A stretch of 61,446 bases of DNA from a virus (lineage: Duplodnaviria > Caudoviricetes): positions 1 through 61,446 of IMG/VR virus record IMGVR_UViG_3300036761_000480; one strand, given 5' to 3'. Under the pieces are notes generated by a model. The model ran no database searches, was not told where the DNA came from, and saw nothing but the letters and a program-made list of their open reading frames with translations. A program made the translations under genes and the position numbers. Positions 3,944-60,719 of this stretch are shown here, piece by piece. The stretch's first letter is position 1. Every line of letters starts with the position of its first letter.

Positions 3944-3994
3944 CTGTGATCTATATACATATAATTATTTGAAAAAATATTTTCTAAAATTTTA

Positions 3995-7462: not shown

Positions 7463-7474
7463 TATTTATTTTTT

Positions 7475-9298
7475 TTAACATATTAATGGTAATTTTCCAT
7501 CTGGACAAGTTCCATAATTTATTGGGATACCATTCGCCACTCCATATATTGTTGAGTATGTTTGAGATGAGTCAACATAATATCCATTATCTGCCAATTG
7601 AGTCAATGCTGAATCTTTATACCAAGTAGTATTTTCAATTCCGAGAGTCATATATTCTGTCTTATCAAAATATATTGTTTCTGTAGTGCCAGTAAGATCC
7701 GCACATGTTTTACAAAGATAAATTTTATCATCATCAAGCGGATCTCGTCCTGTTCCTGCATTATAACAGAAGTCAATTGAAATTGGCCCGTCATCTATAA
7801 AATATCCATATATTATAACATTATCGTTTTTAAATGTATATGTGAGTAATGGATTAGTCGTTATCATATCAGTGTTATCGATTGTAAATCGATCTGCTGT
7901 ATAATATGACCATCCAAGAAATACCGTAGTATTCGTTGGCGTGCCTATAACATCAACGGTTGACAAAGATGGACGAATTACTTCAAATGGAATTGTCCAA
8001 TGACCACCAAGTTCATCAAGTAGATAACCAGTAGAATAGCTTGTTAAATATATTGGAATAAATGTAACATGCAAATTGCCACAATTAATTTCTGGCCACC
8101 TATACACACTACCATCACTATCTATTACATATACATCATATATTCCTCCAGGTAATCCCGTAAATCTCTGTGTGGTTCTATCCGTCGGAGCGGTTAATGT
8201 AACGCCATTATCAATACTATATTGATATGGCGGAATTCCTCCAGTGATAGTGATTGAAATTCTATCTAGGTCGCAGTCAGCATCTGCATCTATAATTACT
8301 AATGGACATGGCCCACATTCAGGGAAACTTATAACAATACCATCAACGATATATACGACCATCGGCGGCCACCAGTCTACTCCCAGTTCTCCTATTGTAA
8401 TATAATACCCTGTTGGAATTAATTCACAAGAAGTTGATCCAGCTGGGCCAGCATATACGTCTTGTCCAATTGTTAAACTTGAAGCAAATCCTCCAATAGC
8501 AGATCCTTCACCCACACATAATGCATCACATGCCTCATCTTGCGAACTAATAAAATTATAACCAAGAGAATCGGTATAGAAAAGAACATATTCTTTCAAT
8601 CCTTCTGGTCTTGCACAACTTGCCGACGGTGTTATTGACGGTGTTGGTGAAGGTGTTTCACTTGGCGTTATTGAAGGTGTTTCACTTGGCGTTATACTTG
8701 GCGTTATACTTGGTGTTTCACTTGGCGTTATTGAAGGTGTTTCACTTGGCGTTATTGAAGGTGTTTCACTTGGTGTTGGCGAAGGTGTTTCACTTGGCGT
8801 TATTGAAGGCGTTTCACTTGGTGTTGGCGAAGGTGTTTCACTTGGCGTTATTGAAGGCGTTTCACTTGGCGTTATACTTGGAGATTCGATTGGCGTTGCG
8901 CTTGGTGTTGGCGAAGGTGTTTCACTTGGCGTTATACTTGGAGTTAAACTTGGTGTTAATGTTGGCGTTGGCGTTATTGTTAACGATGGTGTTACTGTTG
9001 GCGTTATCGATGGCGATGGAACTATGTTAACTAAAGTAAATGTAAAATCAAACTCACAATTGTAAACTATAGTATCTATTGTTGGCGTTAAATTGCACGC
9101 TTCTAAACCAATCGTACATCCTCTCGCATCAGTAATTGTTAATATATAATCTCCTGATGGAATATTCTCAAAACTATATTCCCCATATGCCCAATGCTCA
9201 TTTGTTGCGATTATAGTATCAGGATCAAGCGTAGTGGCGAGAGTGACCGTTATCGGAAAATCTCCATTAGTTATTGCATATGTTATTATTTCTGCCAT
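7475..9298 (-). CDS. Virion structural protein with SprB-like repeats and a Thr-Pro-Ser linker
   Basis: FENIPSGDYILTITDARGC and ITGGIPPYQYSIDNG..FTGLPGGIYDVYVIDSDG resemble SprB repeats; long TPSETPSI repeat. Confidence 0.75.
   Translation of the reverse strand: MAEIITYAITNGDFPITVTLATTLDPDTIIATNEHWAYGEYSFENIPSGDYILTITDARGCTIGLEACNLTPTIDTIVYNCEFDFTFTLVNIVPSPSITPTVTPSLTITPTPTLTPSLTPSITPSETPSPTPSATPIESPSITPSETPSITPSETPSPTPSETPSITPSETPSPTPSETPSITPSETPSITPSETPSITPSITPSETPSITPSETPSPTPSITPSASCARPEGLKEYVLFYTDSLGYNFISSQDEACDALCVGEGSAIGGFASSLTIGQDVYAGPAGSTSCELIPTGYYITIGELGVDWWPPMVVYIVDGIVISFPECGPCPLVIIDADADCDLDRISITITGGIPPYQYSIDNGVTLTAPTDRTTQRFTGLPGGIYDVYVIDSDGSVYRWPEINCGNLHVTFIPIYLTSYSTGYLLDELGGHWTIPFEVIRPSLSTVDVIGTPTNTTVFLGWSYYTADRFTIDNTDMITTNPLLTYTFKNDNVIIYGYFIDDGPISIDFCYNAGTGRDPLDDDKIYLCKTCADLTGTTETIYFDKTEYMTLGIENTTWYKDSALTQLADNGYYVDSSQTYSTIYGVANGIPINYGTCPDGKLPLIC
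8620..9020 (-). repeat. Coding tandem repeat (TPSE/TPSI/TPSP)n
   Basis: Recurrent gaaggtgtttcacttggcgttatt units. Confidence 0.95.
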
Positions 9299-9318: not shown

Positions 9319-12300
9319 TTATCCAGTATTAACTGTCTCCCAAGTTCCGTTATTATAATCAGTTTGACTATCGGTTCTCAAGAATTCCTTTCTCTCAAGC
9401 GTCCAATTTGTTAATGGTGGTACTGTATTTGTTAATGTAAGTCTATCCCATTGTCTATATAATCTCCATTCTTTTAATGATGAATCATATATAAATCCAA
9501 GAGATGCTGGATTGAATAAATTATTTATCATACCATTTGATCCTGAAGCATCAGCTTTAATCCGTAGAAATACCGCAACTTCTCTTTGTGTTTCATGACT
9601 AGTACTTATACTTGGCCTCAATGCCCCAACAGGGTCAACATCTCTTACATGAGATATTCTATATGAAGATGGAACCGAATTTAATTTTGTATAGTTCATA
9701 TTATTAATTGAACTCTGTACCATTGCGTATGATTCATTACATGTAAGTCCAGTTGTCATTCCATTACTTGGTAATGGCATTGTGAAGTTGATAGTTTTAT
9801 TCCCCGCATTAAATGTCACCGTTGATCCAAGAGATATATAAAGATAATTTCTTATTACTGAGTCACCACAATTGTTAGGCGCGTATTCCCAACTTATAAA
9901 ATAATATGAATAATATGCTAAATCAGTTGGAGATGAAGCCAACCAATTAGCATAACCTGTAGATCCTGTAACTGATGCAATATTAGACACGAATTTATTA
10001 TAATCCACAGAGCTTGTAAATGATAATGTTACATCAGTAGTTCCGTTTGGCGTTACTGTCGCCGTATCTGATGGCGTTTCTAAGTTAGCACATTGATAAA
10101 TGCTTCCGTTCCATATCCATTGATTTCCTCCTGTGTCTTTCCATTTATTAGTTATATTTGCTGGATTTAATCCATAATAATTATTACCAAAAATCATATT
10201 ATAATAAACAAATTTATACATATCTGTATATTTCCATAAGAAATATTCGGAAGTTGGCTTATATCCTATAGCTGTTGATGTAAGTCCGCTAATTGTGTTA
10301 TACGAAACATTGAAATAACAATCCGGATCGCCAGAGTATGTCATATATGTTGTACCCGTTAATATTTTACTTATATTTGTATCTGGGAAAGTTAAATTAA
10401 TATCGGAGCTTGTCAAGCATTTCATTCTCATATCCCAGTTGGTGTCATTATTGAGCGGTTCGAGAGTTGATCCAGTTATCCCGATATTTAAATAACCACT
10501 CGCTGCTTCAAAGTTTCCAATGTCCGATATTCCAGTTAAGTCAGTTACATATTTAGCGCCATAAGCTCCATTCATATATGATGAATAGTTATATACTTTT
10601 GGATTAGTTGGGTAACTTGCGGGATATAGATTGGTTATTAAACTATTTGGAAGTCCGCTGGCTGATCTTGTACCGATAACAAAGTTATCAAGTAATATAC
10701 CTGATGGATAATTTGTACTAAAATACGATATTTGTAATTGGTCAGCAACATCATAAGCCGCGAATTCCCAAGCAAAATGGGTTGTTGAATCTAACAGTTC
10801 AAATGATATCGACCTTGATTTATCTTCACTTACATTAACAGTATTTCTATATATTAAACCAAATGGATAAACAGTATCGTTATTAAATACCGCTGAACAT
10901 GTGATTGGACTAATCGTTATTGGCGTTCCATTAACACATGTAAATAAATCGGGACTCCAACGAGTACTTCCAGTTACAGATGCAAAGTATGGGGTATATG
11001 TTAAACCATTTGATACAACATATCTAATAACAGGATAATATGTTCCCTGTGGGACAATTTCATTTGTAAATGGATGTTGTTGTTGTATGTTTGGATCACT
11101 TCCAACTCCCGTAATAAGCTCGGTTGTTCCAGTAATACTACCAGTTCTCCATTCAATTACAAAATCACCAATAGTACATCCATTGCCCGAAACTAATTTA
11201 TTTGATGATAAGAAATATCCACCTGTTTCACCTGAAAGTGATAAATTACATGTTGAACATATAGTGTATATTACTAATGGTGACGGCGTTGGTGATGGCG
11301 TTGGTGATGTAGTAGATTGTGGTGTAATACTCGGCGTTATGGATTGTGATACTCCAGGTACATTGGTAACATCAATAATTTCACCCTCCACGACGCATGG
11401 CGCCGATGGCGTTGGCGTCATTGATGGCGTCACTGATGGAGTTACCGATGGCGTTATACTTGGCGATATACTTGGTGTTATACTTGGCGTTATACTTGGC
11501 GTTATACTTGGCGTTATATTTGGCGTTTTCGACGGTGTTTTTGATACTGTTATGCTCGGTGTTGCACTCGGTGTTGCACTCGGTGTTGCACTCGGTGTTT
11601 TTGATACTGAAATACTTGGTGATATTGAAATACTTGGCGTTAAACTTGGCGTTAAACTTGGTGTTGCACTTGGTGTTTTTGATACCGTTATACTTGGCGT
11701 TACACTTATCGTATTACTTGGTGTTGCACTCGGTGTTTTTGATACCGTTATACTTGGTGTTATAGATGGCGTTATTGAAATACTTGGCGTTATTGATGGT
11801 GTTAAACTTGGCGTTATACTTGGAGTCGCGGTCATCGTCGGTGATATCGAAATACTTGGCGATATCGAAATACTTGGTGTTATGCTTGGTGTTATGCTTG
11901 GAGTTGCACTTGGAGTTTTACTTGGCGTTTTTGTCATCGTTGGTGACGATGTAACAGTTGGAGTTATTGAAATGCTTGGCGTTAGACTTGGCGTTTTACT
12001 TGGTGTTGCGGTCACCGTTGGCGACGATGTAATAGTCGGCGTTATTGTTATACTTGTTGTTATACTTGGTGTTAGACTTGGCGTTGCGCTTGGTGTTTTA
12101 CTTGGCGTTTTTGATACCGTTATACTTGGTGTTATAGATGGCGTTGATGTTATTGATGGCGTTGGTGATGGCGTTGCTGACGGCGTTGGCGTTGATGTTG
12201 GTGATGGCGTTGCTGATAATGATATACTTGGTGTTGGCGAAACATCTTCAATTATACCAGTATCACATACTGTCTCTCCAGTCCATCCATTAGGTCCACA

Positions 12301-15300
12301 AGATCTTATAAATAATTGATTTATTGGCGAAGATTCGGTTTGTCCATATCCTATAAAATATTGATGAAGAGTGTAGTCTATTGTATCAAATTTTTCTTCT
12401 GTATATCTTACTATAATATTGTCATAATTACCTGTCTCGCCATTAAATAAAATAATATTACCATTATCTGAACTTCCACTAGCATTTACTTGATAATATA
12501 TTTTTTTATAATTATCATCACTACAATAATTTAATGTCACACCAGTTACTTCGATTGGAAATCCATATTGATTAATCATTAAATCTCCAATGTATATATC
12601 TTCTGGGTATTTATATTCAAAAAGATATGGTACACTCTGTAATTGAATATTCATATTGGTATATACCAATATTTTACTTGTTGGTAAAACTTCAAATTCA
12701 TCATTAATAATATGTGATTTTACCGTACTAAAACATTCTTTATTTTCAACAGTAATAAAGTCATAATCAAATGCAAATTGATATCCATTAGTATTTGCAT
12801 TACTAAAGTCCTGACTAGATAAGTCTCCATAAGGTTTTAAGGAAAGAGATAATAATATATCACCAATTGAAATGTTTTCAATTGTTATCCCACTAATACT
12901 TCCTCCTGCTATTGCTGTAACAAGATCTTCCCATGTTGATGGAATTGATGGAGAACCAATAACTTTATAAACATCAGTTCCTTTTCTTAATCCATAATTA
13001 AAACTTGGTCTATATTCTACTATTGGATTTGAAGTAAATCCAGTATTAATACCGACTTCGACAACTACAAATTGTAATCCATCAACTTCTAATCTTTGCT
13101 CACAATTCGCGGCATCCGTAAATATTAAATGAATGAGATCACATTCACTAAAACCAGTTAGCATAAAGATACACGGTGCAACTTGTTGTATTCTTGGGTT
13201 AACATTTACTTCATCATCGCATTCCTGATGTACATAAACCGATCCCCTTCCCATTTCATCTCCAGTAGCTCCACTAACATAAAAATATAAATCGGCAAAT
13301 AATTCACATCTAGTATCGCCAGTATAAATTGGTGATGATGATTCCACATATACTTCTAAGGCGCAATCCTGTTTTGTTAAATTAAAAATTGGTGCAAAAT
13401 AATACTCAAATTCCGCATCACAATTCTCATCATAATAGTCATTTGGTGATACTGTAAATCTTACTTTTTCAATACCATCGATGTCGGTAAAATATTCTAC
13501 TGTTATAGTATAACCAGTTTCGCCAGAAATGGCATTTGCTATTAATGTATCTAAAGTACTTCTCCAAATAGTCTTCATATCTTCGACGGTATCACCGCCA
13601 TTAAATAATGACCATGTATTTCCCGAATATTCATATCCACAAACTAATGGAATGCTATCTGATGTTGCCGTTAAGGAAGTACAATTATTGGTTGGAGGAG
13701 TATATGCTGAAAATGGTTTTAAATTAGGCGTTTCGGCGCTATATAGATTACCATTGACAACTAATGATATTTGAAATGATATTCCTCCGAAAAATTGAAC
13801 GCCTCTAAAATTTTCTAACGAAACATCTTCCCCATTAATAGATCCACTACCAATAATTGTCTCAATATCTTCACGAATTACGGTTTCAAAATCTGGGTAA
13901 AGAATTTGGGTATATGTAGTTGGAAGACAAGGTTGAGGATATTGATATCTTGACCCATATCCTGGCCCATTTTCAATTAAATTTCCACCTAGCCATAATG
14001 TTGTTGCTGGCACAAATTGATCAATTATGCTAGTCCAATAAGGACTTAATCTATTTATAAAATCACATACCGCAATATAATTATAGGGTTTGAATTCATT
14101 ACTTCGATAATAAGCGTTATATACCTCCTCTATATCTATATAGTTTCTCTGATACCTCATAATATGTGAATTTGTAATGATGATACTTAACATTTCATCT
14201 AAAAATTCAGCAAATGTCCTATCTGTCTGAGGTGGTAATGTGTGAAAAGTTAACGATAAATTTCTTGATTTTCGATATATGTCATAATCTATTGCCCTAT
14301 CTGCAGCTAAAAACGCATTAATGTTTTTTCTATTTAGCGTTAATTTTGATGTATTTTCATCTATAACATTTTCAATTTTCTTATTATCAATTTTGCTTGA
14401 TAAACTATATCCATAATCTAATCCTGGAAGTTTTCGATATGCGTCAAAATAATCCTCACCATATGTAAATGGTTTAGACATTGTTTTAATGGTTTTTATC
14501 CTACCTGATAAATTAGAATTCGCGGCATCTAAAATATCGGGAGATCTATGGTCTAATAATTTTCTATACCAGCCTGCTCCTGTTTGAAAAAATAAACTAC
14601 CATCTGTTGTGATGATTTTTCGTGGTAATCCCGTAATTTCATCGACAGGATAATTGTCTCTACTTAAACTTGTTGATCCAGTTATTTGTGTTAAAGTATA
14701 TCCGGTTATTCCTGTATTGTATTCCGCCATATTAACCACTCTAATTCCTTGCATTGCTTCCCAAATATCATTTTCGATGGTTTTTGAAGGTAATACGGCA
14801 TCAACTATATAAACATATTCATCAAGCCTAATTAGAGGTTCTGGTGCGCCAATAAATTTTAAAAAGAATTCTATACCACCTCTAGTCCCTTTTGATTTAT
14901 ATAGATTAGCAAGATTGACTAATATTCTTCTATAAAATTCATATTCGGCTTCGATTAAATTAACTCCTGTTGACACACCGTTATATTGGGGATCGTGTCT
15001 TGTATATAAAGAATCTGCCAGACTTTTTTCATCGAATAGGCTAATGGTTGAAAGCCCAAGAGTTTCGGATAGGTTTTTTAATAATACATCGGGAACGTTA
15101 TTAATTCCATCATAACTTACATTTCGCATATAAGCGATGTTATCAATAAACACTTTTATTTTATCAAAACTTTGGCCATATATCTGAAATATGGATTCCA
15201 TCTTTTTTTCTTCAGTATCAAACTCATAAAGTTGTGGAGCGGTTAAAAATCTGATAATTAAATTGGCTTTATAATCATCGCTTTCGTCACCTAAAGAACT

Positions 15301-16245
15301 TAATTGACTAATATAATAATCATAATTAACCCCAGTTATTTGAATATTCCATCCATCTCGTGAAATTGGCCAATTAATATATACAGTAATTGTATCAACA
15401 TTATATCCTCCATTAGTTTCTCTTGGTACATTAAATCCAGCATTAAATTTAGGACTACTTTCTCTATTTAATAATACACTTTCTAAATCATCTAAATTAT
15501 CATAAAATTCTTCTACAACACCATCGTTCGGTCTTATTAGATAATTTTCGGTAAATCCAGTCGCGTTATCAAAACAATTACCATCAACCTTTAATGTAAT
15601 TTTATTGTCAACATCAGGCCCCTCATATTCTAATATACCAAATACACTACCACCAATATCAATTACATATTTTGTATATGATGAATAAAAATTTCTTATA
15701 GTGTTATCTGTAGTTGATATTACATTAGTTTGCGGTTCAATTAATATAACATCTAATGGATTAAATAATAACGAATATTGTACTTTAAATTCTGTGATGC
15801 CTAAATATGGATTATATACAATAGATTCGGCGCTTAAACTGTTTAATCCAACGGGTGATGTTGTATCTACCAGAATTGCTGCGGGATATTTTGCAATGAT
15901 ATTTGAAACTGAAACTCCAAGTCTTTGTTTTAACGAGCCATAGAGCGAACGATCAGCATTATTCTTATCATTATTAAATTTAATATCTTGTGATGTGCTA
16001 CTTGTGCTATCGGTATTAGTAGTAGTACTGTCTTCTTCTTTAATATCATCTAATGTGAGAAAATCCGAAAAGGGCTGTGTTATAAACTCCTTACTGTCTT
16101 TTTCGGGTATTATTCTATCAATAGCAAAGTTTTCGCCAGTCATTTGACTGGAGCCATCAGTAATTTGGTTACCAACCAGAAAATCACTAAATGTATCGGC
16201 CCCACTTGAGGCTTGACTAGGAACTTTGTATTTTACTACTGGCAT
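9319..16245 (-). CDS. Large baseplate/tail protein with P2 gpI-like wedge motif, degenerate Hint-like domain and long Thr-Pro-Ser linker
   Basis: [29 protein letters not shown] matches the KGT baseplate/tail-formation motif; 2308 aa; tail cluster context. Confidence 0.7.
11278..12240 (-). repeat. Coding tandem repeat (x-T-P-S)n, about 300 codons
   Basis: Repeated tacttggcgtta / gcactcggtgtt units; translation [15 protein letters not shown]. Confidence 0.95.
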
Positions 16246-17162
16246 TATGATGTTATTGTATCAAAGTTTAATGACTCATCAATATCTGTTTTTATTTCTC
16301 TAATTTCATATAATGTTTCATTGAACTCATTCTTAATTTCAAATAAATTAAACTGTTTATAGATGTTTTTATCTTTGTCATATATTGTGTATGTACCACT
16401 CGAAATTGCCTTACTTTGATTACCATAAAGAGCATAACTCAATGTTTGAGCATCGTGTTCAACCATTTCAATTTCAATTGTAGTCGGATTAAAATATGTA
16501 TTCGTTAAAATAATGGTTTGCTCAGGTTGCCCAATATACGGAACAGTTGTTGGCCTTGTTGACGGAGCGGCACTTGGAGTTATTGTTAAAAACATTAAAT
16601 TCGTGGCGCTATCAGAATATCTATATCTGATAGCTTTCTGTGTGGTATTAGTTAAATTTGTTGTAATTGGCTCGCAATAAAAATTAGATGTAATGATCCT
16701 ATAAAAATTAGGAACTTTTTTATTATCTGTTGGGTTTATATATTCAATACGATATCCAACTAATCCTTGGGGACTAAATTTATTTCTATCTGTTGAAACC
16801 ACATTTGATAAATCTATTATTAATCCTCTAACTGACGGTAGTGATGCTAGCACGCCACAGTCGGTTATCTTCGTTCTAATCTGTTTTGGCCTCAAGTGAA
16901 GGGTGTATATCCCCAACTCAGAGAAATCGGTTGATTCGAGTTTTAAATTGTATAACCCACCCAAAATTTCAACATTTGGCGCGTTGCTGTCATCTGTAGT
17001 ATCAGAATTATGATAAACAGGTGTTAAAATTGTTGCGGCGTCTAATCTTTTTAATGTTACTTCTGAATTTGCGTTCCTATCAATTACATAGTGATAGATT
17101 ATCTCAACATCTTCAGGGGAGACATCCGATCCCCTAATTATTCCAAACGATCCTGTAGACAT
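16245..17162 (-). CDS. Hypothetical virion structural protein
   Basis: 305-aa ORF whose stop overlaps the next start by 1 nt; TATTTAT motif upstream. Confidence 0.7.
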
Positions 17163-17202
17163 TCTTTTACTTTATTATTTCTTTATTTATATAAATATAA
17201 AA

Positions 17203-18156
17203 TTATTGTTTTTTTACTTTAAAATAACCACTTCCATAGATATCTAGTTCTCCTGTGCTATCAATTTCGCCCAACCTCAAATTTCTTTCCATCACTCCCT
17301 GTTTACCTCTTTCAATGAAAATATCTGAATAAATCTGAGGCTCATCAAGAAACCCTATCAGATGTTCATTTCTTGTTATCATTCCCTGGTATAATTCTTC
17401 ATTGACGTAATTAGATGTTAGCCCTGTTATATGTGTATATCCATCAGAATAATCCATATAAAATAAACCATCTATGGTATAACCCGTATAATCGCCAGCA
17501 TCGGTATGTCCTGTTGTTAATCCTGAATATATATAACCTCTACCATAATTTTTAAATTCGTCAATTCTACTTTTTCCTAAAGCTAAAAACGATATGGTTG
17601 ATTCGTTAGTGTTTCCTGTTAATGTCGTGTAATCTTCCAAATAATCCTGTGTTACACCAGTTACTGGCGGATCATATGTATATGGAACAGTAAATGTTAA
17701 TGTGCCCAAATCAGTTGGAAGAGTTGAACCAGTAATTGGAAGATATATGCTTCTCTTTAGTTTTTCTACTTTCCATGGAGAATCAACAGTAATTTCCACA
17801 TCATATATTCCAGATCCACTATATAAATGTCCAGCATATGGTAAATTTGCGTCATATACGGTTGGCATAGATATAGTATCTCCTGAAGTTCCATCTCCCC
17901 ACGAAATACTAAAAATAGAATCAATAAGAGTTTTTAACTTATTAGTATTTATTGTGTTAAACACAACAATCGAATTCGGAATAACTCCGCCTGCATATGT
18001 GAAATTACAAAATTGTTCAATCTGTTCCATAGTTCCATCAAACCCAACCATAATACCCATTTCATCTGCCGAGCATTCCAAAAATATTGGTATTTGATAT
18101 GTTATACCACTCGTTGACCCTGACAATATTTCGTATCTATCTTTTTTCATATTCAT
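17203..18156 (-). CDS. Hypothetical virion structural protein with PKD-like motif
   Basis: ISWGDG..HLYSGSGIYDVEITV resembles a PKD domain; rich in [ST]GxT. Confidence 0.7.
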   Translation of the reverse strand: MNMKKDRYEILSGSTSGITYQIPIFLECSADEMGIMVGFDGTMEQIEQFCNFTYAGGVIPNSIVVFNTINTNKLKTLIDSIFSISWGDGTSGDTISMPTVYDANLPYAGHLYSGSGIYDVEITVDSPWKVEKLKRSIYLPITGSTLPTDLGTLTFTVPYTYDPPVTGVTQDYLEDYTTLTGNTNESTISFLALGKSRIDEFKNYGRGYIYSGLTTGHTDAGDYTGYTIDGLFYMDYSDGYTHITGLTSNYVNEELYQGMITRNEHLIGFLDEPQIYSDIFIERGKQGVMERNLRLGEIDSTGELDIYGSGYFKVKKQ

Positions 18157-18159
18157 TTT

Positions 18160-19326
18160 TTAAGGTGCTGAGCATGCCTCGGTACAAGTATTAAATGGTC
18201 CGTTTGATACTATAATTAAATCTGTGGTATTAATAGATTGATATGAATCTGGCCGTATTATATCTATCGACGGATCATTTACTTTATAATATTTTCCCAA
18301 GGTTAAAGAAACTGTTGTTTTTATATGGGCACCACCACCACGAGAAACACATATTACCCCATTACAATCATATAATGTGACTCCATATCCAGATGTTCCG
18401 CCAGTTCCAGATGTTCCGCCAGTTCCGGATGTTCCGCCAGTTCCGGATGTTCCGCCAGTTCCGGATGTTCCACTAGTTCCACTAGTTCCACTAGTTCCAC
18501 TAGTTCCATATGCTCCAACAGAACTAGATGATACTGATGTGGAATAAAATCTAATGGGATCGGTACTACATCCAACTCTACCTTCTGTTGCTCCAGAATA
18601 AATCATATATGAATAATCACTTCTATCGATGACCATTTTGTAATACACATCTATCTCTTCACTTGTAACACCGCTATATACTTTATCATAATTCGTAAAA
18701 TTTATCGTTTGTCCATCGATAGTATTAAAGAACTTTGCTGTCATATAAAATGTATTACCTGACATCAATGTTCCGTCCATTACTGTATTATCTTGGAACC
18801 AGAACAAATACATATTTTCTTTGTTTCTATAATTAGATCCCGTAAAAACAGGAACAAAAATATGCTCATTAATTGGCATGTAATAAACCTTTTCCCCTAA
18901 CGGAACAGATAGATGTTTAGTAAATACCAATTTCCTATTTGAACTATTAGGATTTTCGCCTTCTGGAACTTTATAAAATTCTAATCTGAAAAAACTATCA
19001 TTGTCCTGTCTTATAACTTTTGCATTTTTTTCTGGCGTTAATCCTATATACTCATAATTTAGTCCGCCAGCGTGAGTTGGAGGATCTTGATCATTATAAA
19101 AATAGAAATAAAACCAAATATCTGTTTGTTCTATATTTCCTGTTCCTCCTGTACATGATTTGTGCGCGTACCTAACTGTTTCAAAATTAACTGCAGGGTT
19201 AATAACAGACTTTAGAGTATCCTGTTCAAATTCCTGAAAAGATTCTTCCCATCCCAAATCTGTTCTAAAATTAGTTTCAGTATTTATTGAAATTTTTCTA
19301 TCCGATGTATTTCGTAAAATTTTCAT
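18160..19326 (-). CDS. Hypothetical virion protein with Gly-X-Y (GTS/GTG) collagen-like repeat and Cys-containing C-terminal module
   Basis: 388-aa ORF containing GTSGTSGTSGTSGTSGTGGTSGTGG... Confidence 0.75.
   Translation of the reverse strand: MKILRNTSDRKISINTETNFRTDLGWEESFQEFEQDTLKSVINPAVNFETVRYAHKSCTGGTGNIEQTDIWFYFYFYNDQDPPTHAGGLNYEYIGLTPEKNAKVIRQDNDSFFRLEFYKVPEGENPNSSNRKLVFTKHLSVPLGEKVYYMPINEHIFVPVFTGSNYRNKENMYLFWFQDNTVMDGTLMSGNTFYMTAKFFNTIDGQTINFTNYDKVYSGVTSEEIDVYYKMVIDRSDYSYMIYSGATEGRVGCSTDPIRFYSTSVSSSSVGAYGTSGTSGTSGTSGTSGTGGTSGTGGTSGTGGTSGTGGTSGYGVTLYDCNGVICVSRGGGAHIKTTVSLTLGKYYKVNDPSIDIIRPDSYQSINTTDLIIVSNGPFNTCTEACSAP
18388..18507 (-). repeat. 9-nt and 18-nt tandem repeats encoding (GTS)n and (GTGGTS)n
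   Basis: actagttcc repeated; gatgttccgccagttcc repeated four times. Confidence 0.95.
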
Positions 19327-19334
19327 TTATATTA

Positions 19335-21473
19335 TTAATTATCTATTGCAATTCTAATTTCAGTTGGAGAGGTGGTTGCAGGAAAAGAAAATATTTTAAC
19401 AACACTTAAAATATTACCTGTTTCGCCAACATTTATTGGTTCACCTTTATATAAAACACTATCAATATAAAGATTTAAAAATTTAGTTGAATTTGGGGTT
19501 GGTACGCCATAAACTTCCACAGATAATGTTTGACTCGATATTGTTCCAGTATATGTTAATATGGTTGTGCCAGTTACTGGATATACAAATGACGGTATTC
19601 CATTTCCACCTATGCCAGAAAACTTAATGCCATATGCTGGATCCAAAATAAAATTTCCTGAAGCTGGCGGAGTGGGAGTTACTGTTGGCGTTACTGTTGT
19701 TGTTACTGTTACAGTTGGATTAAGTAATACTGCGTGACATTCGTCTGCTCCTTTTACAAAGAAGCTAATAAGGCCATCTTTTTTATTTGTAAAAATTTGT
19801 TCATTTCTTAAATAGAAATTAATATCTCTATGTATGTAATGAATGTTATTCATATATGGATAATCTGTGCCATATCCATCAATATCAATATATCCGTCAT
19901 CATATAAATCTCTCCACCTCCATAATTTTTCACTGGAGAAATATCTTGTGTTTTCAGGTAAATTCTCTACTTTATCAGTATTTGATGTTTCTGTATATGG
20001 GGATAATTCTCTCATTTTAAATCTATAGTGTGGTTGATAATATAACCCTATAGGATTGTCATCAGTTGCGCCAGAATATGTTGTAGTTAATGTTTGCCCA
20101 TGATTAAATACATTTACATTACTAACTATTTTATGAAACGATTCGGATATTATTCTTTCTTTCATCTCTTTAGGATTATATTCAACAAATGCGCCAAATA
20201 AAATATCGCCTTCCGACATTGTTCTTCCTGATGTAAATGTAATTCCGTCTCTAACAAATGTGTCACCAGATAATCCTATTTCTGATGATGTATTTCCACT
20301 AAAATGATCATCAATCCATAAATCGTGAAAATTAAATTTATATCCAACTTTAGGCGGGTATTCGAAAAATCCATTACCATTTCTAAAAACCATCGACATA
20401 TATATATCAGTTGGGGTATATCCTAAATTATTGGTAATTCCAGTTAATATAAAAGGTTCTTTAAAATCAAATAAAACCGCTTCCATCCGATTTCTTTCCA
20501 CAACCACATCATTTATTCCCGCGCTATTTTCAAATAATAATCTCTTTTCATCTTGCCAAATTGGTGATTCAAATCCAACTTTATCTAAAATATAATCATC
20601 TATAGATGTTAATACTTTATGTATGTGCACATAGTACTCTGAAGTAGAATTGTTTATATCATTTATATCGGTACATCTTTTACCATTTACTAATGTATTA
20701 AACGTACCGCCCGTTAATTGTGATTTTGCAATATTTATAACATAATTCTCTGAATTATAAACCTCGTTTCCGATAGAATTAACATAATAAGGTATTGAAT
20801 TTATTATTACAAATTCTCCTTGATTAATACCATGAATAACTGGACTCGTCAGAATATACTCAGTTGTCCCCGTTTGGACTCTAAACGGAATTCCGTCGCC
20901 ACTAAGAAAAGTTAATATATTGTCGCCTTCAGTTTTTATTGTGCCTGATAATGTATACTTCATTGGAAATTCGGCATTATGATCATATATGTAGGTCATA
21001 TAAAGATTCCAATTAAAATGAGGGGCATTAAGCGCTGTAATTTCTTGATGCAATGTTGTTCCAGATGTAATAAGAGTGAATCCAGAAAATGTATCCAAAG
21101 AACTCATTGACATTGGATCTACTGCTTCCCTATATATGTCGTTTCTTAAAAACGCAAATTCATCATATGGAAGATATCCAGCATAACATCCATCTGTTCC
21201 ATCACTATATAATGCTAATCTTTGTTTTAAATAGTCATAATCAGATACTCCAAGATATAAATTTCTAAATACCATTTTCATTTTACCATATATCATATAT
21301 CTGTTACAATCTGACCTTTCTTTTGCAAATTGTTCGGACAAATCAAGAACAATATCTCTATCATCAGTTCGTAATAAAGATTTTTCTTCCTCAAAACCAA
21401 TACGTATCTGACTATCGATTGCTGGCGCCTTTTCGTATCTTAATTTTGGTAATATGATTTGTTTCTTTTCCAT
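19335..21473 (-). CDS. Hypothetical virion structural protein (probable start MEKKQ at 21473)
   Basis: Long ORF in the structural cluster; the ATG at 21473 avoids overlap with the upstream gene; rich in [ST]GxT. Confidence 0.75.
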   Translation of the reverse strand: MEKKQIILPKLRYEKAPAIDSQIRIGFEEEKSLLRTDDRDIVLDLSEQFAKERSDCNRYMIYGKMKMVFRNLYLGVSDYDYLKQRLALYSDGTDGCYAGYLPYDEFAFLRNDIYREAVDPMSMSSLDTFSGFTLITSGTTLHQEITALNAPHFNWNLYMTYIYDHNAEFPMKYTLSGTIKTEGDNILTFLSGDGIPFRVQTGTTEYILTSPVIHGINQGEFVIINSIPYYVNSIGNEVYNSENYVINIAKSQLTGGTFNTLVNGKRCTDINDINNSTSEYYVHIHKVLTSIDDYILDKVGFESPIWQDEKRLLFENSAGINDVVVERNRMEAVLFDFKEPFILTGITNNLGYTPTDIYMSMVFRNGNGFFEYPPKVGYKFNFHDLWIDDHFSGNTSSEIGLSGDTFVRDGITFTSGRTMSEGDILFGAFVEYNPKEMKERIISESFHKIVSNVNVFNHGQTLTTTYSGATDDNPIGLYYQPHYRFKMRELSPYTETSNTDKVENLPENTRYFSSEKLWRWRDLYDDGYIDIDGYGTDYPYMNNIHYIHRDINFYLRNEQIFTNKKDGLISFFVKGADECHAVLLNPTVTVTTTVTPTVTPTPPASGNFILDPAYGIKFSGIGGNGIPSFVYPVTGTTILTYTGTISSQTLSVEVYGVPTPNSTKFLNLYIDSVLYKGEPINVGETGNILSVVKIFSFPATTSPTEIRIAIDN

Positions 21474-21478
21474 TTCTT

Positions 21479-24400
21479 TTAACAATTAACAACATCATTT
21501 ACAAGTCCGCTTGCAGTTATTTGTAATGCGTACCAAATACCATTTCTAATTGCTCTATACCAATTTCCATCACCTATGAAATTATCCGTACAATCCGAAT
21601 CATTATATATGTAGTCGCCAGGAACTGGTGGATAATGGCCCTCAGGCATATATAATGTTCCCGTTGGTGATCCTCCAGCGCAAGCTAAAATTGACGAACC
21701 GTAACTACTAATTAAATAAACCCCATATGCTACAAATGCGGGTGGTGTAGGAGTAGTCGGCGGTGCAATAGGATTGCCTTCACAATCTACACATGCGCTA
21801 TGACCAAACGAATCTAATGATACAATGCCAATATTCATATAACCTAAATCTATATAATCCTGTTCAGTTGTTGTAGATCCAGCAACTATATATGCGTAAT
21901 TTGGATCACAATTGACTCCTCCCCATACAAGATTTCCTGAACTAAGATATCCTGAAAGAGATTGTGCATAATAATAATTACCTATATAACCTTCAACACA
22001 TTTAACTAATCTATAATAGAATGCTTCAGGTGGATAAGGAGTAGGTGTTACTATTGGAGTTGCCGTTACTGTTACTGTTGGAGTAGGTGGTATTGGGCTT
22101 GGCGTTGGCGTTATATCAGGAATCGGGCAACCGACTACGCCAGTTGAAAATGCCCCTTTTGGCCCAAAATATTTAATTAACAAATCTAATGCTGAATTTC
22201 CGGGTCTTAATCCAAAATAAAATAAGAAAGGAGATGATAATACTTGATGTCGCCCGTCATAATTTTGAACAGTTTGAAATATAAATGTTTCTCTATCTCC
22301 CTTTACATATTCATATGGTTGCAATGTCCATGTTTTATTAACAACAACATATATAAGACCTTTTTGTGGATCCTTTATTGATCCTAATGTGACATATAAC
22401 CACAAATCACCTTCTATATATTGTAATGCCCCATTTGGCGATTCATCAGCTGGATAGTAACTAATTATTTCAAACCGTTCTAATATATCTACAGTACTGC
22501 CAGTTACACTAAATGTACTATGGTCTATTGTCATTGGCATTAAAAGATACTCTTCCTCACCATCAGGCATTAAATAATTTGTTCTTCCTATTCTTAAAAA
22601 CAAAGAATCATAAATTGTGGTTTCGGTTACTCCGCTTATAGAGAACATTCTTTGTAGTGGCATTGAGGCAATTGCTGTCTTGTCCCACGCTTGATCATCG
22701 GATATAGGCCCGTAACCTCCAAACCCTGTACCTCCTTTATCCCATAAATAAAATGGAACTGTTTGTGAATAATCACCTAATCTATTATTAAGACACATTC
22801 TAATATGAGCCCCATTAGAATCGAATTTTAAATCTATTGGTGTTGGGCCGAAATCATTACCCGATTTAAAATATTCAGCAAAATTTATATCTTCAGGATC
22901 TAAATATTCATCATTATACATATAATAATGAGGGCTATCTAAATCAAAAGCCTCAATACCTGCCTCACAATTAATTGATATCAATTGGGTAATATCTCCA
23001 TCAAAAACTTTTATTCTATGATTATATGCTGGGCCGTCAAAAAAATCATTAATATCAAAATTCGAATTAGTAATATCCATCCTATAGTTTATTGCATACT
23101 CTACAATATTTGCCGCGTCCTGATAAGATGTTGATCCGATATCCCTGATTACCGAGCATGCTGGGTCAACCGCAGGATCATAACATATTTCATATAAAAA
23201 TTCATCCCTAACTCCCACATCATAAAAGGTGGTAGGGTGTAGAATTTCCTTGGCGCCGCTGGTTGGATTCGTTTGTCCTATAAACCCACTTGCTAAATTA
23301 TAGGGCGTGCTTCTATAATAAAAATTCTTATCCAATATATTAAAGAAAACAAGTTCTCGTGGATATCTGGTTCCTCTTTGATTTAGATCATATATATCTT
23401 CATTATCCCATCGAACTCTTTTATCAAATTTGAAAAAATATAATAAACCATTTAACCAATTATCTATAAAAGAATAATTTACAACACCTCCACAAAACGA
23501 TAATCCGATTCTTTTTCGTCTATACCATTCTTGTATAGCTGGAGTGTTATTACTTCTACCTCTTATTACTGGAATTATAGTGAACTCACCATCTCTAAAT
23601 TCAGAATACCCAGATTTGGTTTTTCTATCATATATTCCTCTCCCTATTCTACGGTAAGGCACATATCTCGGCATTCTCAGAGCTCCTGTTCGACCAATTA
23701 CTGTTGATAACAAATTAACGCGAATCGCATCTGGAAGAATAGATTCCATATATGTCGGATCTTCCAAATATACTCCACTACTAGGATGAAGAGGTAAATA
23801 AGTACTTCCATATGTTGTTCCAGATGACCAAATATATGACATTCTTATACCCTCATTATATGTCTTGTCATATTTAGTACACCCTTCTTCAATTTCAGTA
23901 GTGGTTGTGCCTGTTAATATTACCTCTTTTGCGTATGCCCTATCGTATATTCTTATAACAACATATAGATAAGTATCAACAAATGGATCGGAATTATTGA
24001 TACCTGTTAATTCTTCAAACACATCAGAAGGATATGTCACTTGCCAATTTCCGCCATAATCAACAAATGTTATATCCTCGGAACTCTGGATCGGCGACTG
24101 AAGATTTGAAACATACTCACTTATAATTGTTTGCCTGGTTACATTTGCCCACCCGTATATTTCAACCACATATCTTGGCACTGTACCTAATCCATCGATA
24201 TATATCAAATTAGTTACATCTGATAACATATCAAGAGCTGAAAAATCTAATGCTGGAGCTCCTACACATGGACTATCAGGATCTCTTGCATATTCTCCAG
24301 GAAAGAAATTAGAGGTTTCCGTTACTCCAGTCAAAAATGTTGAATCTGTTATAGTGTTACGCCAGATGTCATCTGTTGGCGGGAGATTATTCGGAACAAC

Positions 24401-26347
24401 AAATCCGATTGCATTAATATTTGGCCCCCATGAATAATTAAGATGAACTTCCATTTTGATTTCAGCCATTCTACAATATGAATCAGCATATGATGTATCA
24501 GATATCACGGATTCATTTACAGTTGAGCATTCCTCACAATCTGGATAAATTGTTAGAGGAAGTTGTTGCGTAAACCTATCTTGAATTCTATATGCTAAAT
24601 CTTCTAATTGTTCAGAAAATCTTCTGAATGGCCTCCACGAACCAAGACCTAATCCGTAAAAAAAACTATGTATTGCATAGAAAAATTTTCCCAATAATTC
24701 ACCAATCTTTACAAAAATAACGGTAACAATATATTGTAAAAACAACAATACCTGAGATAATATTAAATTAAACTTAGCTCTATTTTTAAATCCAAAATTA
24801 GTTGGGAAATAGTTGGCGCTGGATGCACAATCTTCATCTGCCGTTGGTCTTATTTGTTTAATGCCTAAAAATGAATCTCGTTTATTTCCATCAAAATGAG
24901 ATCCCTGAAATGATGAAACGGTATATACTTTACCATATATAAATTTATAAAAATAATCTTCAGGTATGTTATTATTATTAATTCCAAGCATTAAATCTTT
25001 TTTATGTGATTTCTCAGACGTGCCGTAATTTGTTGTAACTAATGATGTTGTACCTGTTGGAGGGATCACAGTTATATAATCTTCAAATACTTCTGAAAAT
25101 TGATATGTTGCTAACATGCCTTCATTGAATTCTATATCATCGCCATACCCATAAGATGTCCCCTGAGAATTTGGATTAAATTCTCTAATATTTGGTACGA
25201 GATATTTTGCAGTTGTTATTTTACCATCTGATACATCTAATCCAAATCTAAATCTAGCAATAGCTGTGGTAGCAATCCCTTTATTTGCGTCGTTTGTTGT
25301 TTCTTGTTCTCCAAATTCATTTGTATAAACATACTCTAAATTCATTGGTAAGACTGCCATAATAATGCCGTCTTCATCAATAACTTCAGTAATGTTTAAA
25401 GTTTCTAATTCTGGATAAAGTGTAACACCATCAGATGCATAAACTTTACGCCCCGTATAGCGAATACACTCAACACTTCCACTTGTAGTTTGTAAATTAC
25501 ATTTATATCCTGTATTTTTTTTGATTCTTCCGCTTCTTTTAACAGCATCACTATTATCATCTGTCACCGCTGATGCTAGGATTAATGATATTGGTTCTAT
25601 TTTAATACCTTTACTTGATAAATCGAAATCTGTTCTTGTTATTCCTATTTCACATAATTCTTCATTACCCCAAAATGGATACACATTTATAGTTTGATCA
25701 TATGAAATTATTTGTGGTAACCCATCAATGTCGGAACTTGATTTAAATTTATAATATCTTTCAAATTCATCAAGTCCAACGCCCCTTTTAATAAAATCAT
25801 ATGGCCTAAGTGAAAAACAACCAATATCTGATAAATCAATATCAACATGTAAAACTTGGGTTCCAACTGGAACTCCCCATATCATAAAATCTCCAGAACT
25901 GTTTGTTTTAACAGTATATTTGTAATAACTTTCGAATACTTCAAGACATTCTTCTCTTGTCAAGATATCTTCTTGATCAAAAAATGTTCCTGTTGGAGCG
26001 TGTCCTGAATGCTGCTGTCTTGCTGGTAGTAAATTATATCGATACCCATTTTCATCTTTATCGATCACACTTGTATATGGATATAATTTCGAAATAACCG
26101 GATCATCTACATCGAGATCGCTTTGAGGAATAAAAATTGAGACTTTTGCGTTAGGAACGCCAAACCCATTATTAGCTGAAATACGACCTACAACAACTCC
26201 ATATTCAGAACAATTACCTGATGCATATATGTCTTTCTGCGAGAATTTTAGTGAGAGTATTTCAATCAAATCATATGTATCTAAAATTTCAACATTAACC
26301 TTTTGATCTCTTCCGATATTGGTATATATTCTGTGTTTTTGTATCAT
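21479..26347 (-). CDS. Large virion structural protein with N-terminal carboxypeptidase-regulatory-like beta-sandwich
   Basis: GVVVGRISANNGFGVPNAKVSIF..TVKTNSSGDFMIWGVPVG; PT linker and Cys-containing C-terminal modules; follows the baseplate wedge genes. Confidence 0.7.
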   Translation of the reverse strand: MIQKHRIYTNIGRDQKVNVEILDTYDLIEILSLKFSQKDIYASGNCSEYGVVVGRISANNGFGVPNAKVSIFIPQSDLDVDDPVISKLYPYTSVIDKDENGYRYNLLPARQQHSGHAPTGTFFDQEDILTREECLEVFESYYKYTVKTNSSGDFMIWGVPVGTQVLHVDIDLSDIGCFSLRPYDFIKRGVGLDEFERYYKFKSSSDIDGLPQIISYDQTINVYPFWGNEELCEIGITRTDFDLSSKGIKIEPISLILASAVTDDNSDAVKRSGRIKKNTGYKCNLQTTSGSVECIRYTGRKVYASDGVTLYPELETLNITEVIDEDGIIMAVLPMNLEYVYTNEFGEQETTNDANKGIATTAIARFRFGLDVSDGKITTAKYLVPNIREFNPNSQGTSYGYGDDIEFNEGMLATYQFSEVFEDYITVIPPTGTTSLVTTNYGTSEKSHKKDLMLGINNNNIPEDYFYKFIYGKVYTVSSFQGSHFDGNKRDSFLGIKQIRPTADEDCASSANYFPTNFGFKNRAKFNLILSQVLLFLQYIVTVIFVKIGELLGKFFYAIHSFFYGLGLGSWRPFRRFSEQLEDLAYRIQDRFTQQLPLTIYPDCEECSTVNESVISDTSYADSYCRMAEIKMEVHLNYSWGPNINAIGFVVPNNLPPTDDIWRNTITDSTFLTGVTETSNFFPGEYARDPDSPCVGAPALDFSALDMLSDVTNLIYIDGLGTVPRYVVEIYGWANVTRQTIISEYVSNLQSPIQSSEDITFVDYGGNWQVTYPSDVFEELTGINNSDPFVDTYLYVVIRIYDRAYAKEVILTGTTTTEIEEGCTKYDKTYNEGIRMSYIWSSGTTYGSTYLPLHPSSGVYLEDPTYMESILPDAIRVNLLSTVIGRTGALRMPRYVPYRRIGRGIYDRKTKSGYSEFRDGEFTIIPVIRGRSNNTPAIQEWYRRKRIGLSFCGGVVNYSFIDNWLNGLLYFFKFDKRVRWDNEDIYDLNQRGTRYPRELVFFNILDKNFYYRSTPYNLASGFIGQTNPTSGAKEILHPTTFYDVGVRDEFLYEICYDPAVDPACSVIRDIGSTSYQDAANIVEYAINYRMDITNSNFDINDFFDGPAYNHRIKVFDGDITQLISINCEAGIEAFDLDSPHYYMYNDEYLDPEDINFAEYFKSGNDFGPTPIDLKFDSNGAHIRMCLNNRLGDYSQTVPFYLWDKGGTGFGGYGPISDDQAWDKTAIASMPLQRMFSISGVTETTIYDSLFLRIGRTNYLMPDGEEEYLLMPMTIDHSTFSVTGSTVDILERFEIISYYPADESPNGALQYIEGDLWLYVTLGSIKDPQKGLIYVVVNKTWTLQPYEYVKGDRETFIFQTVQNYDGRHQVLSSPFLFYFGLRPGNSALDLLIKYFGPKGAFSTGVVGCPIPDITPTPSPIPPTPTVTVTATPIVTPTPYPPEAFYYRLVKCVEGYIGNYYYAQSLSGYLSSGNLVWGGVNCDPNYAYIVAGSTTTEQDYIDLGYMNIGIVSLDSFGHSACVDCEGNPIAPPTTPTPPAFVAYGVYLISSYGSSILACAGGSPTGTLYMPEGHYPPVPGDYIYNDSDCTDNFIGDGNWYRAIRNGIWYALQITASGLVNDVVNC

Positions 26348-26381: not shown

Positions 26382-26503
26382 TTCAGTTTTCCATAAGATA
26401 CGTGAACTACCCTCTAACTAAAATTTATGGGCTTCATGAGTCATCACTCCCACTAATGTGGGCAGTTCGTCATGATTTTCTTGTCTATGTTCCACAGACA
26501 AAT
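26382..26503 (-). ncRNA. omegaRNA of tnpB (scaffold about 26503-26402 overlapping the 3' end of tnpB; guide GTATCTTATGGAAAACTGAA)
   Basis: Ends ...GGGTAGTTCAC like IS200/605 right ends; GAACTGCCC can pair with GGGTAGTTC; hairpins TTGTCTG/TAGACAA and CCCAC/GTGGG; true 5' end unknown. Confidence 0.75.
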
Positions 26504-29465: not shown

Positions 29466-29466
29466 A

Positions 29467-29916
29467 TTAAATGTTTATTATTATAAAATCTGATGTTGAA
29501 AATGTTCCATTATTAACAGTATAATCTAATTTAACTCTTGCTGTGTATGGCTTAGACGAATCATCAGAAACTCTAAATAAGCGAGCATCTTCATCTTCTT
29601 GTGGCATTGACGGTGTTTCTGGATCATCTTCTGCCGACATAATAGCTATTGAATTTACATCTAAATTTGGTATATATTTTCTTATTCCTTCTCTTATTTC
29701 GTCTTCTATATGATTAAACGATACCACATCATTTTGATCGAAAATATATTCATATAATCTAGTACCGAAATCAGGTAAAAAATACCTACTACCTTTTCTT
29801 GTTAAAAGTAAATGTATAAGATCCGCTCTTACTTCTCTCTCAGGAGTAGATGTCATTCTTACATAATTTCCAATCGCACTATCCCTAAATGGATAATCTA
29901 TACCGTATGTTGCCAT
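29467..29916 (-). CDS. Baseplate wedge protein gp25/GPW-like
   Basis: GIDYPF..LIHLLLTRKGSRYFLPDFGTRLYEYIF. Confidence 0.92.
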   Translation of the reverse strand: MATYGIDYPFRDSAIGNYVRMTSTPEREVRADLIHLLLTRKGSRYFLPDFGTRLYEYIFDQNDVVSFNHIEDEIREGIRKYIPNLDVNSIAIMSAEDDPETPSMPQEDEDARLFRVSDDSSKPYTARVKLDYTVNNGTFSTSDFIIINI

Positions 29917-60626: not shown

Positions 60627-60687
60627 AATTCTCTTTTTATAAATATAAGGAAAAATATTAACATAATCAACAAGAACTGTGGAAATA

Positions 60688-60719
60688 AAAAACTTGGAAG
60701 AAATCTCTTCCAAGTTTTT
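60688..60719 (-). terminator. Intrinsic terminator after tail sheath
   Basis: AAAAACTTGGAAGA-aatc-TCTTCCAAGTTTTT perfect 14-bp inverted repeat. Confidence 0.85.

Follow-up and report, generated by a model that had tools for sequence, protein, structure and literature searches.

The window analysed here (G000) is the entire viral record IMGVR_UViG_3300036761_000480, 61,446 bases of DNA with a GC content of ~32% and nearly all of its genes on the minus strand, and our subject is a short protein motif, [ST]-G-x-T, that recurs in several of the tail proteins it encodes. We took 33 long open reading frames (ORFs) as the genes of the window and screened all 33 for the motif. Scans with PHROGs and Pfam identified tail sheath, tail tube, baseplate hub, and gp25-like and gp6-like wedge proteins, as well as a gp32-like single-stranded DNA-binding protein, a UvsX-like recombinase, a DnaB-like helicase, and a B12-type ribonucleotide reductase (NrdJ); the window is therefore regarded as a fragment of a T4-like myovirus. 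The block of genes that carries the motif lies downstream of the wedge genes, which place it in the tail module, and encodes proteins of 1622, 716, 388, 317, 305, and 2308 amino acids (aa). Coordinates of these and other features are collected in Table 1.

Table 1. Features of the window and of related phage records; positions are those of the window unless a record is named, and motif counts are given with the number expected from shuffles in parentheses.
Feature	Position	Strand	Remarks
Three distal fibre proteins (1314, 1155, and 607 aa)	2..9298	-	6 motifs in total (6.2)
(x-T-P-S)n linker, residues 717-914 of the 1314-aa protein	1202-1795	-	
(x-T-P-S)n linker, residues 103-225 of the 607-aa protein	8624-8992	-	
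2308-aa fibre/baseplate protein	9319..16245	-	21 motifs (3.57), 16 with a hydrophobic residue at -1
(x-T-P-S)n linker, residues 1338-1655 of the 2308-aa protein	11281-12234	-	
305-aa protein within the block	16245..17162	-	0 motifs (0.3); internal negative
317-aa protein with PKD-like WGDG...HxY segment	17203..18156	-	10 motifs (0.70), the highest density in the window
388-aa tail-fibre-like protein	18160..19326	-	8 motifs (1.07): 4 dispersed, 4 in the collagen-like run
Collagen-like G-T-S/G-T-G (G-X-Y) run, residues ~275-313 of the 388-aa protein	~18388-18504	-	tail-fibre PHROG match
716-aa baseplate-module protein	19335..21485	-	10 motifs (0.76)
1622-aa protein downstream of the gp6/gp25-like genes	21479..26347	-	6 motifs (1.41)
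TnpB/IS605 OrfB-type gene	26418-27581	-	between the 1622-aa protein and the gp6-like gene
gp6-like (610 aa) and gp25-like (149 aa) baseplate wedge proteins	27633..29916	-	no motif
1901-aa tail-module protein	41305..47010	-	7 motifs (1.23)
HNH/homing-endonuclease gene	55461-56348		
HNH/homing-endonuclease gene	56972-58534	+	sole plus-strand gene among the 33 long ORFs
HNH/homing-endonuclease gene	58842-60713		
635-aa protein, G003	L157:10342-12249		22 motifs (2.7)
2919-aa ORF, G008	181308-190067		12 motifs (79)
3826-aa ORF, G012	123027-134507		54 motifs (10)
GT60 gene, G006	L134:9354-10556		
GT60 gene, G008	L230 ~2747-3943		
GT60 gene, G001	L098:1108-2316		
Glycan island, G017	L324:16693 to L325:13729		
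Glycan island, G008	L233:9270-19827		
Split ribonucleotide reductase, G005	L142, 24812-29595		three ORFs, other genes between

Expected motif counts were derived from 2000 shuffles of each protein, and six proteins (2308, 317, 388, 716, 1622, and 1901 aa) exceeded them severalfold. A collagen-like character was confined to one run of the 388-aa protein; this run, with its four motifs, was removed before these six were pooled, and the pool held 58 motifs where 8.2 were expected (z 17.7). When residues were shuffled only within stretches of 10, 20, 40, or 100, the expected number came to 7.9-9.6 motifs, and at most 22 arose in 1000 shuffles. A first-pass annotation of this DNA had counted the motifs by hand and had named comparison with shuffled sequences as a check; every one of its counts was reproduced, including ten motifs among the 14 [ST]G dipeptides of the 317-aa protein, and the enrichment survives both global and local correction for composition (z ~17). 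In the pooled proteins, x-T follows 58 of the 134 [ST]G dipeptides at a Thr frequency of 0.09 (binomial p 7e-26), compared with 34 of 364 other glycines. NrdJ and the helicase, said in the annotation to lack the motif, indeed hold none among ten and six [ST]G dipeptides, respectively, and by ORF counts it is missing from the window's other non-structural proteins too. The annotation's wording, that the motif is enriched in virion proteins, applies to the six proteins above but proved too broad, since six other large structural proteins (1314, 1155, 607, 305, 1586, and 791 aa) together held 9 motifs against 8.8 expected; it is a subset of the virion that is enriched. Tandem forms such as SGSTSGIT do occur, and clustering of motifs (gaps ≤4) was not significant (4 observed vs. 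2.6 expected, p 0.26). Codons are diverse at every motif position, with five of six Ser, four of four Thr, and four of four Gly codons in use and no constant nucleotide word. This diversity bears out the earlier statement that the motif is not a DNA repeat, and it argues that selection acts on the protein and not on the DNA. Besides T-P-S linkers, no similarity was detectable among the six enriched proteins.

A residue profile compiled from 402 distinct proteins of 80 related loci (285,783 residues, 2250 motifs) refined the motif to [LYFIV]-[ST]-G-{not P/K}-T. Enrichment at the first position was 6.0-fold for Ser and 4.8-fold for Thr; at the second it was 5.3-fold for Gly, as against 0.88 for Asn, 0.90 for Ala, and 0.66 for Asp; and at the last it was 5.3-fold for Thr, 1.2-fold for Ser, and 1.1-fold for Val. 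Pro was excluded from the x position (0.23) and Lys was scarce there (1.2), any other residue being accepted, while the residue before the motif (-1) was preferentially Leu, Tyr, Phe, Ile, or Val, with Asp, Arg, Glu, Gly, and Lys avoided. Within the window, 42 of the 58 motifs (72%) have a hydrophobic residue at -1, 14-fold more than the 2.9 expected. Related patterns stay at expectation, whether [ST]G.S (8 vs. 7.9), G.T preceded by a residue other than Ser or Thr (34 vs. 36), the reversed pattern (8 vs. 8.2), or permuted patterns. When three-residue patterns were scanned without bias, TG.T and SG.T ranked just below words of the T-P-S linkers. Similar residues (Asn or Asp for Gly, Ser or Val for Thr) were not tolerated in the graded manner expected of a fold-determined turn. 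Bacteroidota possess a general O-glycosylation system, which acts in the periplasm on secreted proteins at the sequon D-(S/T)-(A/I/L/V/M/T). The phage motif resembles it as a short Ser/Thr pattern associated with the same predicted host phylum, but in it the Ser/Thr is followed by Gly and preceded by a hydrophobic residue, and the host sequon is unenriched in the window (D[ST][AILVMT], 29 vs. 29.6), in keeping with the annotation's remark that the two differ.

The enriched proteins comprise the tail sheath and proteins of the fibres and of the baseplate periphery. In the sheaths of four phages, none of 24 motifs lay in the conserved C-terminal 290 residues; all were in the variable part, which we take, going by T4 gp18, to be the outer domains. 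The gp6-like wedge proteins of six phages, when pooled, had no motif where 2.6 were expected, and pooled counts were 0 vs. 0.3 for the tube and 1 vs. 0.55 for the portal, with a weak excess in the major capsid protein (6 vs. 1.8). Host-like lectin/adhesin fibre proteins and proteins of the type IX secretion system (T9SS) type from the same genomes were unenriched, though rich in Ser, Thr, and Gly. In the window, the host-like lectin/adhesin proteins are the distal fibre proteins of 607, 1155, and 1314 aa, which have Fib_succ_major, Lcl_C, Laminin_G_3, DUF5977, and SprB domains; the SprB repeat, DUF5977, Fib_succ_major, and Laminin_G_3 are typical of Bacteroidota surface proteins.

Beyond the window, hydrophobic-[ST]-G-x-T is 5- to 14-fold over-represented among outer tail proteins across a large clade of aquatic, T4-like jumbo phages, which have Bacteroidota as their predicted hosts. 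The 317-aa protein has at least 960 metagenomic homologues (E ≤0.001), on contigs of up to 342 kb; the best 120 of these 960 contain 800 motifs against 78.8 expected, and for the 716-aa family the count is 222 against 41 in its top 150 representatives. All 80 viral loci fetched around 317-aa homologues were enriched (3.2-12-fold; 3086 vs. 558 when pooled), and whole related records gave observed/expected counts of 143/68.8 (G001, 203 kb), 107/56.5 (G002), 245/57.3 (G003), 112/33.3 (G006), and 114/38.1 (G012). Just 12 of the 336 ORFs of G008 (292 kb, CheckV 99%) hold 105 motifs against 19.6 expected, the remainder being at or below expectation with one G/T-rich 2919-aa ORF set aside; similarly, 14 of the 278 ORFs of G017 (298 kb, 93% complete) hold 174 against 39.2, and its other ORFs 64 against 55.2. 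No large structural protein was enriched in either of two control phages, T4 (35 motifs vs. 25.9 expected over 222 ORFs) and Flavobacterium phage immuto (88 vs. 51.2 over 195 ORFs), the latter being the nearest cultured relative by capsid protein (~40% identity); the clade itself has no cultured member. Among GenBank phages, the window DNA had only a low-complexity match and the 317-aa protein had no match. G012 and G013 were considered as a motif-free outgroup and rejected because enrichment was found in other proteins there, which leaves no clean related outgroup; in the G012 lineage the enrichment is in the sheath (11 vs. 1.9), an 880-aa protein (11 vs. 1.55), and the 3826-aa protein (54 vs. 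10). The giant ORFs of G008 (2919 aa) and G012 (3826 aa) are 43% identical over the aligned stretch, and that of G008 consists of 27% Gly and 26% Thr.

Among homologues, the positions of the motif turn over. In 85 aligned members of the 317-aa family, it occurs at 50 columns, of which 5 are occupied in at least half of the sequences, 7 are intermediate, and 38 are sporadic; the sporadic columns hold 106 occurrences, while permuted patterns of the same composition gave 8-17 columns and 13-36 sporadic occurrences, and several of the gains lie within insertions. In 60 sequences of the 716-aa family, none of the 47 motif columns was occupied in half of the sequences or more, occurrences numbered 120 against 20-37 for permuted patterns, and each of the ten sites of the window's protein was common to only 1-10 family sequences. 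A G012 homologue that aligns to residues 24-562 of the 716-aa protein (30% identity) has none of the ten motifs: it is without the segments bearing four of them, and the others are replaced by unrelated residues. Since a full-length homologue is motif-free and no column is conserved, the motif is not required for the 716-aa fold. The conservation of position expected of a fold-determined turn was thus absent from the 716-aa family and partial in the 317-aa family (5 of 50 columns). Judged from these alignments, the motif is gained repeatedly at new places and shifts between proteins in different lineages.

The placement of motif sites was read from the secondary-structure strings of models. 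The model of the 716-aa protein is good over residues 50-565 (mean pLDDT 78.7), a region with seven motifs, of which four lie in irregular loops (coil), one in a hairpin turn, and two at strand ends; the model of the 317-aa protein is poor (pLDDT 59). In a 770-aa protein the motif occurs in propeller-like repeats. The motif can clearly sit on tight turns, and a structural role and a role as a sequon need not exclude each other. A Foldseek search of the 716-aa fold against the PDB returned nothing at E ≤0.001, the ESM Atlas gave no usable match for this protein, and a single-protein scan with the motif-free homologue gave nothing. A small beta-barrel at residues 172-278, proposed by VIA-align with Z up to 6.4, was rejected as it scored below the level of unrelated models. 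Searched against solved structures, a profile of the motif retrieved only designed toroid proteins and no natural solved protein rich in the motif. The 716-aa ORF was called from TTG (start region 21473-21485), with an ATG four codons downstream; since the ESM Atlas entry begins at residue 5 (Met), the true start is probably this ATG.

The sharp specificity of the motif, its restriction to one clade and to the outer virion, the turnover of its positions, and its dispensability for the fold are best explained by something that reads the motif. Our preferred reading, to which we assign a probability of roughly 0.4, is that it is a modification sequon, most likely for O-glycosylation, because of its Ser/Thr content and the glycosylation genes of the clade. 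Under such a scheme, selection would maintain [LYFIV]-[ST]-G-x-T as a short linear recognition motif in the exposed parts of tail, baseplate, fibre, and sheath-insertion proteins. Its reader would be a glycosyltransferase that the phage encodes, that works in the cytoplasm, and that attaches an O-linked sugar to the Ser/Thr or to the final Thr, often on a tight turn or loop, and lineage-variable enzymes would then extend the sugar to give a glycan-coated virion surface. That the reader is an enzyme, that what it attaches is a glycan, and the identity of this enzyme are all inferred. The first-pass annotation had also proposed a sequon; an enrichment that is protein-level, confined to the outer virion, and clade-wide, with turnover of positions, speaks for its proposal, whereas a specific link between any enzyme and the motif could not be established.

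The candidate enzymes provide points both for and against the sequon. In the window itself, the PHROGs and Pfam scans found no glycosyltransferase. Its relatives encode many, and the co-occurrence of glycosyltransferases, which the annotation had suggested looking for, gave a divided answer: many families are present and one, PF13712, accompanies the enrichment throughout, but the distribution of GT60 is only partial and that of PF13712 is confounded by ancestry. The GT60 candidate was recognized in G001, where a gene adjoining a GT2 gene matches PF11397 (E 2.8e-65, 221.5 bits vs. a cut-off of 21), the profile of GT60, the polypeptide alpha-GlcNAc-transferase or Skp1 Gnt1 family. GT60 enzymes glycosylate proteins on Thr, Ser, or hydroxyproline, and their known acceptors are Pro/Thr-rich mucin-like stretches or a single residue of Skp1. 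The phage gene has 5341 metagenomic homologues (E ≤1e-10) and 79 viral loci; in 40 of the 79 it lies within 10 kb of motif-enriched proteins of at least 500 aa, it often sits inside the fibre block, as in G006 and G008, and all four of the large GT60 contigs examined also encode a 317-aa homologue. No solved relative of the phage GT60 was found by sequence. The gene is 65-80% identical among phages whose other proteins are 25-50% identical.

Against a link between GT60 and the motif, 14 of 54 informative loci have unenriched large neighbours (25 of the 79 were uninformative), and the gene is present in G007, a DnaE-type phage whose large tail/fibre-like proteins are unenriched. It is also absent from the enriched G017 (93% complete), for which reason GT60 was rejected as a universal reader. 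Moreover, in 52 of the 54 informative loci GT60 is found together with mucin-like (x-T-P-S)n or T-P-T-P linkers, and these Pro/Thr/Ser linkers resemble the known acceptors of the family more closely than [ST]-G-x-T does. Three such linkers occur in the window, where TPS words are 15-fold enriched, and they are of the classical O-glycosylation acceptor type; the motifs of the 2308-aa protein flank its linker on both sides. In G007, T-P-T-P linkers adjoin the GT60 gene.

G001, G008, and G017 have in common two conserved proteins, a PF13712 glycosyltransferase and a small GT2-like protein. Each of the nine enriched records with a completeness of 43% or more (G001, G008-G012, G017, G018, and G020) has PF13712, and neither of two complete unenriched phages (T4 and immuto) does. 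This match of profiles speaks for the sequon but is confounded by ancestry, since PF13712 belongs to a set of 55 core genes that are specific to the clade. In G008 and G017, the gene flanks islands of 8-15 glycan genes whose contents vary with lineage: GDP-mannose 4,6-dehydratases, an epimerase/reductase, aminotransferases, GT2, GT7C, a TOD1/MUCI70-like enzyme, GT10 or GT11 and NodZ-like fucosyltransferases, sulfotransferases, and methyltransferases; galactosyl-type transferases are among these genes. Such a pairing of a conserved transferase with lineage-variable glycan genes is the genomic picture expected of protein glycosylation in which the sequon is fixed and the glycan varies, but the islands could instead serve the modification of DNA or of the host envelope. 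Two further candidates from G008 were rejected: among its other glycosyltransferases and associated genes only GDP-mannose dehydratase recurs in relatives, and its GT9-like gene, considered as an autotransporter-type heptosyltransferase, had only a weak lipopolysaccharide heptosyltransferase match (E 0.002). It is conceivable, though we hold it with some doubt, that this clade of Bacteroidota jumbo phages runs its own virion O-glycosylation, with PF13712 as the best candidate for initiation, the islands extending the glycan, and sequons coming and going as they do on animal-virus glycoproteins; a glycan coat of variable make-up would then cover the tail fibres, the periphery of the baseplate, and the surface of the sheath.

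An alternative that we consider unlikely, yet serious enough to be weighed in full, is that the motif is purely structural: it would be a favoured tight turn (beta-turn or beta-arc), preceded by a buried hydrophobic residue and reused in beta-rich domains (PKD-, leucine-rich repeat (LRR)-, and propeller-like domains and sheath insertions), with no reader at all. Most of the observations in its favour are at the same time points against a sequon. The -1 residue is hydrophobic in 72% of motifs and almost never charged, which suggests a buried anchor, and the Gly is invariant, as at turn positions with positive phi. In the 716-aa model, TGTT at 205 forms a two-residue hairpin loop, while the motifs at 406 and 419 mark the start and end of strands, respectively. 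The five conserved columns of the 317-aa family include LTGxT, YTGYT, and ITGxT, and sites 180, 224, and 244 of the 317-aa protein are kept in 72-82 of the 85 homologues. Finally, many motifs of the 635-aa protein of G003 are periodic in an LRR-like repeat (...NTI-SGxT-SxIP-TGxT-xFxI...). Plant-type LRRs contain a fold-bound short motif, NxLSGxIP ('LSGxIP'), that likewise places an [ST]-G-x turn after a hydrophobic residue; most phage copies, however, are spread without periodicity over unrelated proteins and lack conservation from homologue to homologue. A general preference for such turns should also show in T4, immuto, host-like fibre domains, and T9SS-type proteins, where enrichment is only 1.0-1.7-fold, and near-equivalent substitutions (Asn/Asp for Gly, Ser/Val for Thr) should not be as unenriched as they are. 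Nor does a structural requirement agree with the retention of the 716-aa fold by motif-free homologues, with positions that turn over faster than in permuted controls, with the four of seven motifs that lie in irregular loops, or with the failure of the motif profile to retrieve a natural solved protein rich in it.

It is also possible, although rather improbable in our estimation, that the reader of the motif is no glycosyltransferase but, for example, an enzyme transferring acetyl, methyl, phospho, or sulfo groups, an assembly chaperone of the clade, or a host factor outside the cell. Any of these would leave the same population-genetic signature, which says only that a reader exists, and relatives encode GNAT acetyltransferases, FkbM and other methyltransferases, and sulfotransferases, together with the chaperone genes DnaJ, ClpB-like, FKBP, and cyclophilin. 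On the other hand, Pfam scans of G001 (169 of 184 ORFs) and of 146 G008 proteins contained no protein kinase family, and the sulfo- and methyltransferases lie within islands of sugar-nucleotide genes, which suggests that they act on the glycan. To our knowledge, the motif is unlike known chaperone-binding patterns, which counts against a chaperone as reader. That the enrichment is an artefact, produced by composition, low-complexity sequence, repeated DNA, or common descent of the proteins, is scarcely credible. The proteins do have high contents of Ser, Thr, and Gly, a collagen-like run accounts for four of the motifs in the 388-aa protein, and the G/T-rich 2919-aa ORF of G008 (79 expected, 12 seen) shows that composition can mislead; this explanation was nevertheless ruled out by the shuffle, permutation, codon, and similarity controls described above, the collagen-like run having been removed before pooling.

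In the literature, we found no paper on a 'TGXT motif', on GT60/Gnt1 in phages, or on a phage tail-fibre sequon, and we know of very few systems of phage virion glycosylation and of no sequon defined for any phage. Freeman and co-workers reportedly described in 2023 the O-glycosylation of mycobacteriophage virions, with glycans on C-terminal extensions of capsid and tail-tube subunits. The system proposed here would resemble theirs in that phage glycosyltransferases modify structural proteins in the cytoplasm and the glycans are carried on the virion surface; it differs in that its candidate sites are dispersed tetrapeptides, found in proteins of the tail, baseplate, and fibres and in sheath insertions, while the capsid protein shows just a weak excess. 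The chlorovirus PBCV-1, a virus of eukaryotes, has its own multi-enzyme glycan machinery and N-linked capsid glycans at atypical sequons. It offers the likeness of a large virus with its own glycan enzymes and non-canonical acceptor motifs on structural proteins, whereas here the virus is bacterial and the hypothetical link would be an O-link to tail proteins. One source on the bacterial TibC/AAH autotransporter heptosyltransferases describes cytoplasmic enzymes that place many sugars on short 'heptosylation motifs' in the loops of beta-helical adhesins, an earlier example of short motifs being hyperglycosylated in the cytoplasm on a surface protein rich in beta structure (PMC4358343). Those enzymes belong to a GT9-like family, of which a single gene was seen among the phages considered here, in G008.

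If the motif is indeed a sequon, it would provide a sharp, clade-wide rule for predicting decorated phage proteins, with dozens of sites per protein, and would point to a conserved enzyme and a ready set of acceptor peptides. A glycan coat in aquatic jumbo phages could conceivably serve in protection from proteases, in masking from host receptors or defences, or in adhesion to mucus or particles. If it is purely structural, it would still be unusual, in that selection would have favoured the same tetrapeptide turn in many unrelated folds within one lineage of viruses.

Large aquatic phages termed 'moraphages', with predicted Flavobacteriia hosts and genes for DnaJ/DnaK and glutamine synthetase, are described in a further source, which reports four core groups of putative glycosyltransferases and leaves their role open (PMC12619734). 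G008 has DnaJ, glutamine synthetase, and many glycosyltransferases in common with them, and by this gene content the enriched clade may be the same as the moraphages or related to them.

Some mobile elements accompany the tail genes of the window. The TnpB-type gene between the 1622-aa protein and the gp6-like gene has a Cas12f1-like TNB domain and a PHROG transposase match (E 4e-120). Three HNH/homing-endonuclease genes lie around the tube and sheath genes, two of them being paralogues (39-43% identity). In G005, the ribonucleotide reductase that matches NrdJ of the window is broken into three ORFs with other genes between the pieces, and one of these other genes resembles a 401-aa REase-domain protein of the window; this arrangement suggests intein or homing-endonuclease insertions.

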